Position numbers and translations under genes: made by a program | Part shown: in pieces, positions 11,484 through 21,131 of the stretch | Position numbering within the stretch: the first letter of the stretch is position 1 | Layout of the letters: the number at the start of each line of letters is the position of its first letter | The notes under the pieces: generated by a model | Databases searched by the model: none | What the model saw: only the letters and a program-made list of their open reading frames with translations | What the model was told of the DNA's origin: nothing | NCBI GenBank assembly: GCA_963816145.1 | Contig: CAWFJP010000004.1 | Span: 416,001 to 480,000, forward strand | Direction: 5' to 3' | Source of the DNA: an uncultured delta proteobacterium | GTDB lineage: Bacteria; Desulfobacterota; Binatia; UBA9968 | Length of the DNA: 64,000 bases

Positions 11484-12638
11484 GTGCAGGCATTGCTTTG
11501 GTGGCGGAGGTTTTGTGTGCAGAGATTGATCGGCCTGGGTTTAACGCACAGTATAGCGCTGGCCTTCGGCATTTTCCTGTCTGCCGCAAATGCGCTATGC
11601 GCGGATGCGCCGCGGCCATCCCGGTGGGAGACCACGGTCGAAGCGGCCAAGAAGGAAGGCCAGGTCAACATCTATCTTTACCGCTACGGGCGGGTGCTCG
11701 ATGTCTTTCGCAGTGACTACCCGGAGATCCGGCCGTATTTGCTTACCGGCACCGGCGCGCAGATCACGACGAAGATTTTGACCGAGCGCAGAGCCGGGCG
11801 CTACCTTGCCGACGTGGTCGGCTTGGGTTCGTCGAATTACCGGATACTGCATCAGCAGGCAAAGATTCTCGACCCTATTCAGCCGGCGTTGATGCTTCCC
11901 GAAGTGCTCGATGGCGCGCGCTGGTACGGCGGCAAGCATCGCTATCTCGATGCCGAGAACAAGTATGTCTTTGCCTATCTCGCCAACGCCAGTTCGGGAC
12001 AGCTCTATTACAACACCGCGCAGGTCAATCCCAAAGAGTTCACCTCCTATTACGATCTGTTCAAGCCCAAGTGGAAGGGTAAGATCGTTATGCTCGATCC
12101 GCGGCCGCGCACCGAGATCGGCACCACCATGCAGTTTTTTTATTACAATCCGGAACTCGGGCCGGGATTTATTCGGCAGTTGTTCGGCGCCAAGGAGATT
12201 ACTTTTAGCCGCGACAGCCGGCAGATGATCGACTGGCTGGGACAAGGGAGATTCTCGATCTGCTTCGGTTGCTCCGGCGCGCTCAAGGCCAAGAATCAGG
12301 GACTGCCCATCGAGATCTTCGACACCAGCCTGTGGAAAGAGGGCGCCAGTTTTTCGGTCGGCGGCGGCACGCTATCGACACCGAGCCAGGGATCCCATCC
12401 CAACGCCGCCAAGGTTTTCACCAATTGGTATCTGTCGCGCCGCGGTCAAATAGCGCTGCAAAAACTTGGCGACCCCGACGAACCGCCCAACTCGGCGCGC
12501 ATCGATATTCCCAAGGACGAGATTCAAGTGCACAACAAACTGATCGACGGCCGTAAATATTTCGACGCCAGCCGACCGGAGTTCGAAGATATCGATGGCG
12601 CGTTCAAGACCGCGGTTCAGGCGATGGATGGACGCTGA
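11484..12638 (+). CDS. ABC-type extracellular solute-binding protein (AfuA/FbpA-like fold)
   Basis: AAKKEGQVNIY, PKWKGKI, HPNAAKVFTNWYLS motifs; exact start uncertain. Confidence 0.85.
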   Translation: MQALLWWRRFCVQRLIGLGLTHSIALAFGIFLSAANALCADAPRPSRWETTVEAAKKEGQVNIYLYRYGRVLDVFRSDYPEIRPYLLTGTGAQITTKILTERRAGRYLADVVGLGSSNYRILHQQAKILDPIQPALMLPEVLDGARWYGGKHRYLDAENKYVFAYLANASSGQLYYNTAQVNPKEFTSYYDLFKPKWKGKIVMLDPRPRTEIGTTMQFFYYNPELGPGFIRQLFGAKEITFSRDSRQMIDWLGQGRFSICFGCSGALKAKNQGLPIEIFDTSLWKEGASFSVGGGTLSTPSQGSHPNAAKVFTNWYLSRRGQIALQKLGDPDEPPNSARIDIPKDEIQVHNKLIDGRKYFDASRPEFEDIDGAFKTAVQAMDGR

Positions 12639-12697
12639 CAGTTTTCGACCGCGGCAAGCTGTTTGAATTGAAATTAACCAGGGAGAACGATTAACCC

Positions 12698-13985
12698 ATG
12701 GAACTGTCACTGCTCGATTACTCGATCGACCAACTGGAGTGGGGCGCGCGCAGCGCGCTGACCGGTCGATCGCTGACCGTCTCGCAGGCCGACATTCGTG
12801 CACTTGCTCGGTGATTTAAGCCACGGCATTCGCGTCGACTTGGAGCTCGCCCGTCCCGGCGAGTCGAAGCGCATCGTCCATGTGCTCGATACGGTACTGC
12901 CGATTGCTAAGCTTGCCGGTGCCGGCACGGCCTTTCCAGGCTTCCATGAATCGGCAAAACTCGTCGGCACTGGGAAAACCGCGCGCCTCAATAATCTTCT
13001 GGTCACCGTGGCCGGGCGCTTCCCGCAGTTCGAATCGTTGTCGCCGATCGAAAAGCCGCGCGAGGGGATCATCGATATGGCCGGTGTCGGCGCACCCTAC
13101 GCTTACGGTTCGGATCGATTTCATGTCGTGCTGTCGCTCACACCCGACCCGTCGGTCTCCAACGCCGGCTTTGATCAGGCGCTGAGAAACATGGCGCTGC
13201 GCTGCGCGAGCTTTCTGGCGCGGGTGGACAAAAACAACTGCGAGCCGGCGGAGCAGCGGATTGCTTTGCCGCCGGTCGATCAACGTTTGCCCAAAGTGGT
13301 GCTGATCTACCAGGTGCAGAGCCAGCTGTGCTGCGCGCGCACATTTTATTACGGCGAAGAAATTTCCAAAACCTTGCCCACCTTCGTTCATCCCAGCGAA
13401 TTTTTCGACGGCGCGGTGGTCAGCGGCAATTATAAAAGCGAGCGCAAGGTGCCGACATCTTTGCACTGCGATAATCCGTTCATCGCCGACTTGCTCGCGC
13501 GCCACGGCAAAACCCTGAACTTCCTGGGCGTGATTCTGTCGCGCGGTTACAACGATAGTTTTGAGCAGAAAAAAAAGCTCGGGCTTTGGGTGGCGCGCCT
13601 GGCGCGAAATCTTGGAGCCGACGGAGCGGTCGCCTTCATGGAGGGCACCGGCAACGGCACGGTGGACTTCATGCAAACCGTCAAGGCTTGCGAGGACGAG
13701 GGTGTTAAAACCGCCGCCGTCTTGCATGAATCGAACGGTCCCAAGGGTTACGAGCGGCCTTTGGTCGACCATCCCAAGGAGGCCGATGGGATGATCAGCC
13801 GCGGCAATGTTTCGGAAAAAATCTATATCCCGCCGCTCGACTCGGTAATCGGCGCCACGACGCTCGATCTCCACTTGAAGGCGAGCCACGATGCGCGCTT
13901 GCCGTTTCTTTTCGACCCAACGATCTTTTTCGCTTCCTACAGCAAGATGGGTAGCAGCGGCTTTCGCGCGGAATATGAGAACTGA
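12698..13985 (+). CDS. grdE: Glycine/sarcosine/betaine reductase component B proprotein subunit (GrdE/GrdG/GrdI family); one +1 frameshift near 12803
   Basis: ATG 12698 after GGGAGA gives MELSLLDYSIDQLEWGARS..., joining the 12798 frame VDLELARPGESKRI, EGIIDMAG.GA.Y, DGAVVSGN, NFLGVI, GADGA, EG.GN. Confidence 0.8.
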
Positions 13986-14067
13986 CGTACCGCAATCGAA
14001 GATGAACAGAGATTAACCGTAAAGCGCCTAGCGCGGCAGATCCGTAACCCAATAAGAAGTAAGATGT

Positions 14068-14148
14068 TCACCACGAAGGACACGAAGATCACGAAGTTCG
14101 GAGTTCAAACTATCCGAAACCTTCGTGGCCTTCGTGCCTTCGTGGTGA
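14068..14148. repeat. CACCACGAAG...CTTCGTGGTG palindromic intergenic element; copies at 16835-16940, 18102-18381 and 32033-32103
   Basis: Arms of 9-mer CACGAAGNN units with terminal TCACCACGAAG / CTTCGTGGTGA. Confidence 0.75.
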
Positions 14149-14352
14149 GATCGCATTTTGCGTTTAGCAGAGCAATTTAGGAGCCTTGGCGCGGGAAAAT
14201 TGCGCCAGCCGCGAAAATTTCAAAATATAATAATACAATTTCACATCGAAATAAGATTCTGATTCGGAAGGTTGGCCGCAAAGAACGGAAAAAGGAATTG
14301 AAATTGTTGGGGGCAACCCGCCGTGGTTGCCGATCCATTACGGAGGCGCGCG

Positions 14353-15651
14353 ATGATCAAAGTGCTGCACTATTTGAACCAGTTTTTCGCCGGCATCGGC
14401 GGCGAAGAGAAGGCCGGGCAGGAAGCGCTCTTGCTGCCCCATGCGGTGGGCGTCGGTAGCGTGATCGAAACTGCATTGAAAGCGCACGGCGTGGAATACG
14501 CAACGATCGTTTGCGGCGACAACTATTTTCACGAGGCGGAACCCGAAGCGTTGCGCACGATCGGCTCGGCGATCGATGAGTTTCACCCGGATCTCTTCCT
14601 GGCCGGTCCTGCGTTCAACGCCGGCCGCTATGGCCTCGCCTGCGCCAAGCTGTGCAGTTGGGTGCGCGACAATTGGCGCATTCCGGCGATTACCGGCATG
14701 GACGAAAATAATCCGGGAACCCAGGAGATCGGCCGCCATGTTTTCGTTGTGCAAACCGGCGCTTCGACGGCGTCGATGGCGGAGACTTTGAAGCGGTATT
14801 CCCAGCTGATCGAAAAATTGCTGGCGCAAGATGCCGCCGCGGTGGAAAATTTCCGCGCCGAGCACTGTCTGCCGATCCCGCGCCGGTTCACGGTAAAAAC
14901 CGGCAAGCCGGATTATGTCCGCGCCACGGATCTGTTGCTGTCCAAGCTCAACGGCCAAGCCTATACAAGTGAAATTCCGCGCATCGAAACCGAAGCGCAC
15001 ACGATTCCAAATTTGGCCGGTATTTTGAGCGAGGCCACCGTGGCGCTGGTTACCGAAGGCGGCTTGGTGCCAACGGGAAATCCGGATCGTTTGGAAAGTT
15101 CGCGCGGCTCGAAATATTTCAAGTATTCGCTCGCCGGGCGCGACGATCTCAAGCGCGGCGAGTTCGCGGCGATGCATACCGGTTACGACACCTCCACGGT
15201 CGATCAAGATCCCGATCGCATCGTTCCGGTCGACGCCATGCGCGCGCTGGAGAAGGCGCAAAGGATCAAAAAACTCTACGATCATTATTTCGTCACCACC
15301 GGCACCGGCGCCATGCCGAGCAAGATGGCTGAGCTCGGCGCCGGCATCGCCGACGAGCTGGTGACCGCCGGCGTCAACGCGGTCATTTTGACCGCCACGT
15401 GAGGAACCGGCACTCGTAGCGGCGCTACGATCAGCAAAGAAATTGAGAAGAAAGGAATCCCCGTCGTCCTGATCACCTGTCTTGCCAACGTCGCGCAGCA
15501 AGTCGGCGTCGGCAGGATTCTCGCCGGCAGCAAATTTCATTACCCGGTCGGACAACCCGAACTGCCGCCGCAGGAAGAACTGCGCTGGCGCGTCGCGCTC
15601 CTCGAGAAAGCGCTCGCTTCCCTGGAAACTAGGCAGGAGGCGAAGAATTGA
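14353..15651 (+). CDS. grdB: Selenoprotein B of the glycine/sarcosine/betaine reductase family (432 aa, Sec at codon 350)
   Basis: HYLNQFFAGIGGEEKA, CGDNYF, AGPAFNAGRYG, DPDRIVPVD; in-frame TGA at 15400-15402 in AVILTAT-U-GT; GrdB-like sequence continues (GATISKEIEKKGIPVV...RILAG...HYPVGQP) to TGA 15649-15651. Confidence 0.9.
15414..15430 (+). promoter_or_regulatory. Bacterial SECIS element of grdB-like gene
   Basis: TCGTAGC-GGC-GCTACGA perfect hairpin starting 11 nt after the UGA, G-led apical loop. Confidence 0.75.
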
Positions 15652-15774
15652 AAAAATGGAGAATGGAAAATTGATAATGGAGAATGACGGGGAGGCGAGG
15701 GGGAATTGAGAATGGATAATGGAGAATTGATAATTGAAAATGCGGGGGAAGGGGGATGGGTTATTCGACTCTTT

Positions 15775-15845
15775 CCGTCATACCGTTGAAGAACGGTATC
15801 CAGGTGCATGATGGGCCTGGATTCCCGCGTGCGCGGGAATGACGG
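15775..15845. repeat. Composite REP-like element (CGTCAT..hairpin..ATCCAG / CTGGAT..hairpin..ATGACG); near-identical inverted copy at 45406-45476
   Basis: CCGTCATACCGTTGAAGAACGGTATCCAG + CTGGATTCCCGCGTGCGCGGGAATGACGG; both copies 71 bp. Confidence 0.8.
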
Positions 15846-15880
15846 AATGATCAGTTCACTTCTCGTTGGAGCAATTTTCG

Positions 15881-16744
15881 CTAACTTCTTCCCGTGAGCT
15901 TCCGTCCTTGGTCCAAGACTCCGAACGTGCGCGGCGATGAGGGCATGAGGAAACGGTAGCCGTCTTTCACCAACCGCTCGATGTTTTTGCCGTCCGGATG
16001 CGGATGGCCGCAGGGGACGTTGTGTTCTTTGCAGATTTTCAAAATGCTGTTGATTGCGTCGGCGACCACCGGGTGGTCGTAGTCGCGCGGATGGCCGAGC
16101 TCCTGGCTCAGATCGCCTTCGCCGATCAGGACCACGCCGATACCGGGCACTTCTTTTAAAATCTTCGGCAGGTTTTCGATGGCGCGCATCTCTTCGCATT
16201 GGATGACCACCAGGACTTCGCCATCCGGCGCCAGCGGCCAGACATCGGCGCGCTTGTAATATTCCTGTTGCGGCAGCCCCCAGTAGCGCGCGGCGCGGGC
16301 CGGCGCGTCGCCGCGGATGCCGGGCGGATGGTAGCGCGGCGCGCTCTTGAGGCGCGGATAGCGGCAGGCGCCGACGGCGTTGGCCGCCTCTTCGACCGAG
16401 CTGACATGGGGGAAGATGATGCCCATGACGCCGATATCGAGCACCTGCTTGGCGATCCAGCTGTTCATTTCGATGCCGTTGGGCGGTACGCGCACCATCG
16501 GCGTGACCGCGGGCGCGAGGGTGCCGCCGGCGACGATCTGGCCGCGGTCGAGCATGAATTGCAGGGCATTGCGCAGGCCGGGAAAATCCAGCGGCGCATG
16601 TTCCATTTCAAAAGCGACGCCGTCCAGCTTGGTGCCGGCCATGGCGACGGCATTCTCGATGTCGACGGGAGTGAAGGCGACGAAGGCGGTCTGGCCTTGT
16701 TCGAGGGCTTTGATAACGCCGTTGAGGCGAGGTATGTCTGGCAT
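15881..16744 (-). CDS. HpcH/HpaI aldolase/citrate lyase family protein
   Basis: FEMEHAP, PMVRVP, KQVLDIGVMGIIFPHV, GIRG, IGEGDLSQELG; start at MPDIPRL after AGGAG. Confidence 0.88.
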   Translation of the reverse strand: MPDIPRLNGVIKALEQGQTAFVAFTPVDIENAVAMAGTKLDGVAFEMEHAPLDFPGLRNALQFMLDRGQIVAGGTLAPAVTPMVRVPPNGIEMNSWIAKQVLDIGVMGIIFPHVSSVEEAANAVGACRYPRLKSAPRYHPPGIRGDAPARAARYWGLPQQEYYKRADVWPLAPDGEVLVVIQCEEMRAIENLPKILKEVPGIGVVLIGEGDLSQELGHPRDYDHPVVADAINSILKICKEHNVPCGHPHPDGKNIERLVKDGYRFLMPSSPRTFGVLDQGRKLTGRS

Positions 16745-20144: not shown

Positions 20145-21131
20145 TCAGAACTTCAACCCTTCGGCAAACTTCTCTTGTTTCAATCGCTCGATGATCGAGC
20201 CATCGACGAACTCCTTGGGGTCGCGTTTGGGGGCGTCGGGGTATTCTTTGCCGAAGTTTTCCAGGATGACTTTGATGCCGTCGAGCGTCGGCGCCATGTA
20301 GTCGGGCATCAGCGAGGCGACGAAGTCGAACTCGGTCGCCATCAGTTTGGGATCGCTGATCTTCATGTACTTGCCGATGGTGCGCTCGCTTTCGGCACGG
20401 TTGCGCTTCATGGTGACGATCGCTTCGGTGGCGCATTTCATGTAGCGGTAGGCAAGCTCGCGGTTTTTCACTAGCCAGCTTTCTTCGACTACCACTGAAG
20501 TCCAAGGAAATGGGATCGCCATCTGCTGGGCGGTGGCCAGCACGCGGAAGCCGAGCGCGCGGGCATTGTCGGTGGCGGCGGCGCCGAGGAAGGTGTATTG
20601 GACGGTGCCGGCTTTCAAGGCGGCGACGCGGCTGGAGTCGCCGCCCATCTGGAGCATCTTCAAATCGCGGTCGACGTTCAGGCCATTCTTGCGGAACAGA
20701 TAGCGGAATCCCTGGTCGGTGGAGGAGCCGAAGCGCGAGATGCCGGCAAACTTTCCGGCCAACTCGGGGATGCTTTTGATGTCGGGATGGACGATCAGAT
20801 TCGACGCCAGCCAGGGCAGCGGATTGCCCAAGATCGTCAACTTGATGCCGCGCAGGCGGGCTTCGATGGACACCGGCCCGCCGCCGGCGATCTGCACGCT
20901 GCCGCCGAGCAGGGCGGCGATATTCATGGTGCCGCTGTTGATGTAGAGCAGCTCGCCTTCGAGGCCATGTTTGGCGAAGATGCCGCGGTCCAGGGCGACC
21001 CACAAGAAAGCCTGCGTAGCGTTGATTGCCGAATAGGAGATACGTAGTTTGTCGGCGCCGGCGGCGTAGGGAGTCGGCGCAACGAGTGCGAATAATACCA
21101 GCAGAGCGAAGTAAAATTTGCGATTGATCAT
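20145..21131 (-). CDS. ABC substrate-binding protein (NMT1/TauA/SsuA-like)
   Basis: Signal peptide; LWVALDRGIFAKHGL, GISRFGSSTD, FVDGSII..L motifs. Confidence 0.88.
   Translation of the reverse strand: MINRKFYFALLVLFALVAPTPYAAGADKLRISYSAINATQAFLWVALDRGIFAKHGLEGELLYINSGTMNIAALLGGSVQIAGGGPVSIEARLRGIKLTILGNPLPWLASNLIVHPDIKSIPELAGKFAGISRFGSSTDQGFRYLFRKNGLNVDRDLKMLQMGGDSSRVAALKAGTVQYTFLGAAATDNARALGFRVLATAQQMAIPFPWTSVVVEESWLVKNRELAYRYMKCATEAIVTMKRNRAESERTIGKYMKISDPKLMATEFDFVASLMPDYMAPTLDGIKVILENFGKEYPDAPKRDPKEFVDGSIIERLKQEKFAEGLKF

Follow-up and report, generated by a model that had tools for sequence, protein, structure and literature searches.

A GrdB-family selenoprotein gene without the UxxCxxC cysteines in an uncultured Binatia bacterium, and the conserved hairpin behind its UGA codon

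The locus

We analyzed a 64,000-nucleotide (nt) stretch of DNA, hereafter the window, from an uncultured delta proteobacterium (Desulfobacterota; Binatia; UBA9968), which corresponds to positions 416,001 to 480,000 of contig CAWFJP010000004.1 in GenBank assembly GCA_963816145.1. Our subject is a grdB-like gene with an in-frame UGA codon, predicted to encode selenocysteine (Sec, U), in which two cysteines that follow Sec in canonical GrdB proteins are replaced by Gly and Ser. The gene is preceded by a Shine-Dalgarno-like sequence and, across a spacer, by the gene for a GrdE-like partner, and the UGA is followed by an RNA hairpin that resembles a selenocysteine insertion sequence (SECIS) (Table 1). 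An open reading frame (ORF) list made with translation table 11 ends the grdB-like gene at position 15402. The initial annotation of the window had proposed that the frame stays open beyond this point, and this is the case: with the TGA read as U, 82 residues follow U350 and the frame closes at a second TGA (15649-15651).

Table 1. Features of the grdE-like/grdB-like locus, in window coordinates
Feature	Positions	Strand	Basis
GrdE/PrdA-family partner (second subunit of protein B), Tyr at the canonical pyruvoyl-Cys position	12698-13985	+	Pfam Gly_reductase PF09338, E 3.2e-90
Spacer between grdE-like and grdB-like genes, 367 nt (about 12-15 nt in orthologues)	13986-14352		
Shine-Dalgarno-like GGAGG, 6 nt 5' of the grdB-like ATG	14342-14346	+	Read from the sequence
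GrdB-family gene for predicted selenoprotein B, 432 residues, Sec at residue 350	14353-15651	+	Translation with TGA read as U
UGA, predicted selenocysteine codon	15400-15402	+	TGA at this column in 98 of 98 distinct family members aligned
G-T-G-T-R-S codons after UGA, Gly and Ser in place of the two canonical Cys	15403-15420	+	
Match to Rfam SECIS_4 (RF01990), full model length, sub-threshold	15403-15440	+	25.5 bits (gathering threshold 38), E 0.012
Predicted SECIS upper hairpin, 7 base pairs (bp), 15414-15420 with 15424-15430, loop GGC 15421-15423	15414-15430	+	ViennaRNA fold, covariation

A GrdB-like protein with Gly and Ser in place of two cysteines

The predicted protein matches the Pfam family GRDB (PF07355) with an E value of 2.4e-106 (356.4 bits, cut-off 22) and passes the NCBIfam subfamily model TIGR01918 (365.3 bits, cut-off 65.45). 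It does not reach the equivalog models of the family, scoring 329.9 bits for GrdB (TIGR01917, cut-off 602.2), 370 and 363 bits for GrdF and GrdH (cut-offs 800 and 775) and 88.1 bits for the D-proline reductase subunit PrdB (TIGR04483, cut-off 300). All five homologues that lie above the GrdB equivalog cut-off (644 to 806 bits) read U-G-T-C-T-R-C, the canonical sequence with which the initial annotation had compared the gene. A passage of PMC6778437 states a UxxCxxC motif after Sec for GrdB, GrdF and GrdH, and the window gene is without it. Its codons 3' of the UGA are GGA ACC GGC ACT CGT AGC GGC GCT ACG, so that position +3 is Gly (GGC, 15409-15411) and position +6 is Ser (AGC, 15418-15420), both one base away from TGC, as had been remarked. 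In addition, Ser-2 of the S-T-U-G motif is replaced by Ala in the window gene.

Searches of PDB sequences with phmmer gave no match at E ≤ 0.01 to either the GrdB-like or the GrdE-like protein. An AlphaFold2 model of the GrdB-like protein, built on a 27-row alignment, reached a mean predicted local distance difference test (pLDDT) score of 89.8 and a predicted template modeling (pTM) score of 0.56. A Foldseek search of this model against the PDB returned generic two-domain alpha/beta matches only (PleD and sugar-binding proteins; template modeling scores of 0.15 to 0.21, root-mean-square deviation above 20) and no informative relative.

UxxGxxS as a conserved subfamily

We compared the gene with a family set of 116 loci, which yielded 105 full-length U-containing products, 98 of them distinct; L006 was omitted as a duplicate of L007. 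The sample is biased, since it was drawn from the 80 best matches of a query derived from Binatia, with relatives added. Eight of these 80 loci gave no motif by the search pattern (L050, L052, L067, L076, L077, L088, L095 and L113), and the match ranges of two of them, L050 and L052, end before the site. Row L026 and genome G005 stem from a genome flagged as unpublished, and no claim made here rests on that genome alone.

We saw no homologue that has Cys instead of Sec, in agreement with a passage of PMC1794560 that describes few or no Cys homologues for GrdB. UxxCxxC is found in 36 rows, mostly from Bacillota, followed by UxxGxxS in 29, UxxSxxS in 12, UxxSxxC in 9, UxxGxxC in 7, UxxDxxC in 2 and three singletons, and these motif classes track clades in a FastTree tree. 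The UxxGxxS rows comprise a 23-row Binatia clade (support 100), three rows from Thermodesulfobacteriota and three from Dehalococcoidia, a distribution compatible with a single origin (Shimodaira-Hasegawa-like support 90). Judged by alignment and phylogeny, UxxGxxS is a conserved subfamily in which both UxxCxxC cysteines are absent and which occurs in Binatia, Dehalococcoidia and Thermodesulfobacteriota. Among the papers listed by a literature search on glycine reductase, betaine reductase or selenocysteine in this group, none mentions Binatota or Binatia.

The hairpin that follows the UGA

The hairpin starts 11 nt 3' of the UGA, and the five codons that form it, CGT AGC GGC GCT ACG, are a perfect inverted repeat centered on GGC. 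Folded as a single sequence of 66 nt, the region does no better than shuffled sequences (z = 0.58; 142 of 200 shuffles fold as well). We consider the hairpin to be more than chance because of comparative pairing and covariation, not because of the single-sequence fold. In a set of 96 distinct homologues, paired cells make up 95.1%, compared to 80.9% in shuffles, and the covariation score of 0.363, compared to 0.126 in shuffles, was reached by none of 500 shuffles; slid controls gave 0.017 to 0.112. The pair 28-36, which joins the first base of the +6 codon to the third base of an Ala codon, is UA in 51 sequences, AU in 41, GC in 2 and UG in 2, and is unpaired in none; the neighboring pair 27-37 is UA in 66, CG in 29 and AU in 1. 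RNAalifold recovers the core of the hairpin (5 pairs), and throughout the family the R-x-G-A-x codons give rise to a stem of 6-7 bp capped by a GGN loop. The pairing of AGC with GCT that the initial annotation had seen in the window sequence is borne out by both the 7-bp fold and the covariation.

The criteria that Zhang and Gladyshev set for bSECISearch in 2005 reportedly place the apical loop 16-37 nt after the UGA, with a G among the first loop bases. The GGC loop of the window gene begins 18 nt after the UGA. Canonical GrdB loci match SECIS_4 at the same place with 52.5 to 66.2 bits, and the paralogous genes L001, L002, L004 and L005 of the window genome give no SECIS_4 match at E ≤ 1. In an Rfam scan of positions 12500-16000, the spacer matched neither a riboswitch nor any other family. 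We interpret the hairpin as a GrdB-type SECIS and a homologue of SECIS_4 (RF01990). Like that element, it lies directly after the UGA, with a 6-bp upper stem, a 3-nt G-rich loop and R-x-G-A-x codons; unlike it, the window gene does not form the lower 2-bp stem of the model.

The initial annotation had also suggested that the RNA structure constrains the Gly and Ser codons. One interpretation is that Ser at +6 is there for the RNA and not for the protein, the stem having forced the change of residue. AGC does pair with GCU, and across 21 distinct Binatia orthologues no nucleotide of the five stem-loop codons differs, whereas 54 of 55 other degenerate codons for invariant residues around the site vary synonymously. 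However, 51 sequences build the same stem from UGC:GCA and 2 from GGC:GCC, so Cys fits the RNA equally, and the choice of Ser follows protein clades. Compensated pairs are found in three forms, UGC:GCA, AGC:GCU and GGC:GCC, so that Ser is not imposed by the RNA; the stem as its cause is very improbable, and these comparisons refute it. What stands of the suggestion is that the +6 codon lies within the stem and is frozen within the clade; the stem restricts the ways in which the codon can change but does not determine the encoded residue. The +3 Gly codon is not part of the stem, and among the 21 orthologues it shows synonymous variation (GGC 18, GGA 2, GGT 1). A synonymous change of the pairing Ala codon from GCA to GCU would have allowed the RNA to absorb the Cys-to-Ser change at +6.

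Conservation of the gene

The genome that contains the window (7.8 Mb in 31 contigs) carries a selA-selB-selD cluster (contig C30, 562492-566803), in which selD itself has an in-frame TGA, and a selenocysteine tRNA gene with anticodon tca about 10 kb downstream (C30, 576761-576855). It has six GRDB paralogues, with TGA at the same column in all six, a matching compensated hairpin in each and a full CxxC in none. The paralogues (L001-L006, on contigs C27, C5, C31, C8, C29 and C4) show motifs of five kinds, namely U-GSCSRG, U-GTSTRS (twice), U-GSSTRC, U-GTCSRS and U-GTGTRS. The C-terminus of the C8 paralogue (L004) is frame-broken after about residue 404.

We extended the comparison to 41 genomes, consisting of the window genome and 40 relatives. 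Among the matches listed, all that extend across residue 350 have one in-frame TGA, and those without a TGA end before that residue. All 16 orthologous loci with sequence across the site, each from a different genome of the same genus and at 63-94% identity, read U-GTGTRS; a seventeenth orthologous contig ends short of the site. The initial annotation had noted that Sec is retained while both flanking cysteines are gone, and together with the 29 UxxGxxS rows these loci make this a conserved subfamily trait. The comparison with homologues that it called for gave none with Cys at codon 350. The ratio of nonsynonymous to synonymous substitution rates (dN/dS) in five pairwise orthologue comparisons is 0.07-0.21 after the UGA (76 codons) and 0.15-0.18 before it (300 codons). 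By these measures, the codons after the UGA appear to be under purifying selection, and the UGA is a conserved, predicted Sec codon.

A motif-less B component is called “likely a pseudogene” in a passage of PMC6778437, and decay could be suspected here as well: lacking UxxCxxC, the B component would have no function, and translation would stop at the UGA. In the window assembly, the partner gene carries a frameshift and a repeat element lies between the two genes. Yet motif, UGA and hairpin are kept together in the 16 orthologues, dN/dS after the UGA is low, contigs of three independent runs do not show the partner frameshift, and grdC is broken in a similar way only in low-contig assemblies (G000, the window genome, and G004, G017 and G019), which points to assembly indels. 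We judge decay to be extremely improbable and largely refuted by these comparisons, which argue against the view of PMC6778437 for the Binatia clade. An error of sequencing or assembly might also have produced the TGA or the Gly and Ser codons, as the initial annotation had considered, and the assembly does have at least one probable single-base indel nearby, at 12799-12801. However, at least 16 runs from soil and wetland contain near-identical DNA. In run X8, a contig has no difference from the window over 15294-15474, and a contig of run X1 spans 14272-15429 with three differences; among the differences listed (51 more are unlisted), none falls within 15400-15430. The same codons also occur in the 16 other genomes and in 13 named public metagenome-assembled genome (MAG) loci. 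The metagenome contigs thus uphold the codons, and error, the probability of which is negligible, is refuted.

The GrdE-like partner and the spacer

A GrdE-family gene lies directly upstream of the grdB-like gene in nearly all loci. The canonical processing site of GrdE reads G-N-C...S-A-C, and by our count its first Cys is residue 242 of the Paraclostridium sequence; a passage of PMC9908766 gives the pyruvoyl peptide as GrdE residues 242-266. The window partner reads G-N-Y where canonical GrdE has G-N-C, and the second processing cysteine is missing as well. Among the partners of UxxGxxS proteins, the Cys242 column holds Tyr in 20, Phe in 7 and Cys in 0 of 27, with a gap at the second Cys, compared to Cys in 31 of 34 partners of UxxCxxC proteins. 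None of the eight GrdE-like genes in the window genome has the canonical G-N-C site. Overall, CxxC and partner Cys242 are concordant in 77 of 82 pairs (46 + 31) and discordant in 5, a pattern that holds at the level of clades. The window partner scores 93.6 bits for the FarE equivalog NF053623, below its cut-off of 675.

The window copy of the partner gene has one extra base near 12799-12801, which places its N-terminal 33 codons in a different frame, and contigs of runs X1, X2 and X8 are without one base at this place. The grdC gene of the window genome is likewise in four frame-broken pieces (C2, 210846-212232) and is intact in relatives; its fragmentation only in low-contig assemblies suggests long-read indel errors. 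Because three runs are without the extra base and grdC is broken only in low-contig assemblies, the partner frameshift is likely an assembly indel, as far as such comparisons indicate.

The spacer contains a palindromic repeat of about 85 nt (about 14066-14150), of which there are about 340 copies in the same genome; in soil and wetland metagenome contigs its depth is 618-2379, compared to about 10 on the flanks. Directly 3' of the grdB-like stop, at 15652-15880, are short repeated AT-rich motifs, parts of which recur 20-55 times in the genome.

GrdA, GrdC, GrdD and gene neighborhoods

A grdC-grdA pair lies on contig C2 of the window genome (210846-212871). Its grdA (212428-212871) contains one TGA within the motif C-F-V-U and scores 184.2 bits for NF040748 (cut-off 130). 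Among the 41 genomes, 34 have grdA, each with one TGA, and 34 have grdC, adjoining grdA. No grdD was found in any of the 41 at E ≤ 1e-10, the window genome giving only a 20.3-bit match. In two genomes, G025 and G029, grdC-grdA lies less than 2 kb from a cysteine-less (UxxSxxS) GrdE/GrdB pair. The window genome also has two haem-copper oxidase subunit I genes.

The neighbors examined in the window encode a solute-binding protein, an HpcH/HpaI aldolase, an amidohydrolase_2 protein, a DUF885 protein and one protein without a family. Twenty ORFs flanking eight other loci belong to unrelated families (SBP/NMT1-like binding proteins, glyoxalase, PPK2, Lon, histidine kinase, LytB, methyltransferase, MFS, luciferase-like, molybdenum oxidoreductase, GntR and SSF), among which only periplasmic binding proteins recur, and they give no usable clue. 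Orphan solute-binding protein genes (SBP_bac or NMT1-like) are recurrent near Binatia GrdE/GrdB pairs, in varying position and orientation; examples are at 11484-12638 and 20145-21131 in the window and at loci L040 and L047. In a Desulfobaccales MAG (L094, 3-1730), a molybdopterin oxidoreductase gene abuts a GrdE/GrdB pair of the UxxGxxS type.

A proposed mechanism and its rival

We favor, with moderate confidence, the reading that the gene encodes the Sec subunit of a “protein B” of the glycine reductase type, made together with the adjacent GrdE-like subunit, and that this protein B carries out non-Schiff-base C-X chemistry via GrdA. With no pyruvoyl carbonyl, no Schiff base would form with a primary or secondary amine, and for this reason glycine and sarcosine are unlikely substrates and their reduction is probably not what the protein does. 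The selenolate would attack the alpha-carbon of an acetate-type substrate with a good leaving group, as proposed for betaine and fluoroacetate reductase. The Se-bound product would go to the CxxU motif of GrdA, which would supply the resolving thiol, and then to GrdC, so that turnover would need no cysteine beside Sec. In the published glycine reductase scheme, as given in passages of PMC6778437, PMC10838667 and PMC13188914, CxxC protects Sec or contacts GrdA, and GrdA is the redox-active CxxU partner. Since CxxC has this protecting or contacting role and GrdA holds the CxxU, no new catalytic cycle need be invoked for the loss of CxxC alone. The initial annotation had proposed a different catalytic or protective cycle. 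The partner without a pyruvoyl Cys and the Ala at Ser-2 lend weight to that proposal, but the loss of CxxC is not sufficient for it and a GrdA with CxxU is present.

The main rival is an enzyme independent of GrdA, in which the Sec adduct would be resolved by a remote Cys of the complex or by a free thiol, as proposed for PrdB, in a cycle truly different from that of glycine reductase. Candidates would be C54, C97 and C376 of the GrdB-like chain or a Cys of the GrdE-like chain. The initial annotation had described Sec as having no nearby resolving cysteines, which is correct along the chain, but C54 and C97 are nearly invariant in the family (Cys in 92-100% and 86-100%, respectively, of most motif classes), and C376 is found in 23 of the 29 UxxGxxS rows and is kept in the Binatia clade. 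In the secondary structure of the model, C376 terminates a strand beside the strand that precedes Sec, and by this topology it may be close to Sec. A role independent of GrdA would also be consistent with the separation of grdA from the grdB-like gene in the window genome and with the absence of grdD, which leaves the canonical route past GrdA incomplete in any case. However, GrdA and GrdC co-occur in most of the 41 genomes and adjoin a cysteine-less pair in two of them, the subfamily members from Dehalococcoidia and Thermodesulfobacteriota have not kept C376, and the PrdB equivalog score is far below its cut-off. We consider this rival unlikely.

Several observations weigh against a GrdA-dependent, pyruvoyl-free protein B. 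C54, C97 and C376 may sit near Sec in three dimensions and could serve as resolving thiols. The grdA and grdC genes are on another contig, with no linkage to the window genes in this genome, and neighbors differ between orthologues, so that gene context offers no substrate clue. The joint loss of CxxC and Cys242 has no statistical support, with one independent contrast on supported branches (five on all branches) and p = 1. Support from RNA is weak: one RNA run (X17) gave contigs of 90-95% similarity that cover parts of the locus only, and in other RNA-labelled runs 0.00-0.06 of the locus words matched, which speaks neither for nor against expression. Finally, with a frameshifted partner gene and a repeat-bearing spacer of 367 nt, the window copy might be impaired, although the extra base is missing from three metagenome runs.

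More tentatively, we speculate that Binatia run a set of pyruvoyl-free Sec “B” modules without a full CxxC, six in this genome, that feed one GrdA-GrdC pair without GrdD. Such a set might cleave C-X bonds reductively in non-glycine substrates without forming acetyl phosphate, with Sec lacking vicinal protective thiols in an oxygen-respiring cell. This arrangement is possible, although we put less trust in it than in the chemistry proposed for the single pair. If it is true, the textbook role of UxxCxxC as an indispensable protection of Sec would not be general, and the paralogue series would amount to a natural mutational scan of UxxCxxC.

Significance

The gene matters for annotation: gene callers cut these grdB-like genes at the UGA, and the SECIS_4 threshold misses this branch. 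At least one genome paper assumed that a B component without UxxCxxC is a pseudogene, but conservation suggests that such components are functional. The disappearance of CxxC, Ser-2 and the partner's pyruvoyl Cys, with GrdA and GrdC kept and GrdD absent, points to non-glycine chemistry without a Schiff base, and its setting is that of abundant, uncultured soil and wetland bacteria. Six paralogues with five motifs provide a natural series for asking about the function of the two cysteines. Position +6 offers a clean natural case of a residue replacement inside a recoding signal that is offset by a synonymous change in the pairing codon.

Comparison with known systems

The window gene resembles GrdB, GrdF and GrdH, with their partners GrdE, GrdG or GrdI, in its whole-length fold family, Sec column and SECIS codons, in the GrdE-family gene upstream and in the presence of GrdA and GrdC in the genome. 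It differs from them in having Gly and Ser for both Cys, Ala for Ser-2, a partner with Tyr, and no grdD. The host has two haem-copper oxidase genes and is no clostridial fermenter.

A closer parallel is the fluoroacetate reductase of Cloacibacillus porcorum MFA1, for which a passage of PMC10838667 describes a FarB without CxxC and a FarE without processing cysteines, which is for that reason not a proprotein. The same double loss, of CxxC in the Sec subunit and of the processing Cys in its partner, is seen in the window pair. The two systems differ in phylum and habitat, and the window partner is far under the FarE cut-off. Radical S-adenosylmethionine (SAM) and antiporter genes are described for the fluoroacetate reductase operon in a passage of PMC10838667, and neither was found among the window neighbors examined. 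By sequence, the window gene is a cysteine-less B variant of a kind already published for FarB/FarE, which limits the value of its description as a variant. New here are the UxxGxxS class, the pair-by-pair covariation of the hairpin and the partner with Tyr in place of Cys242.

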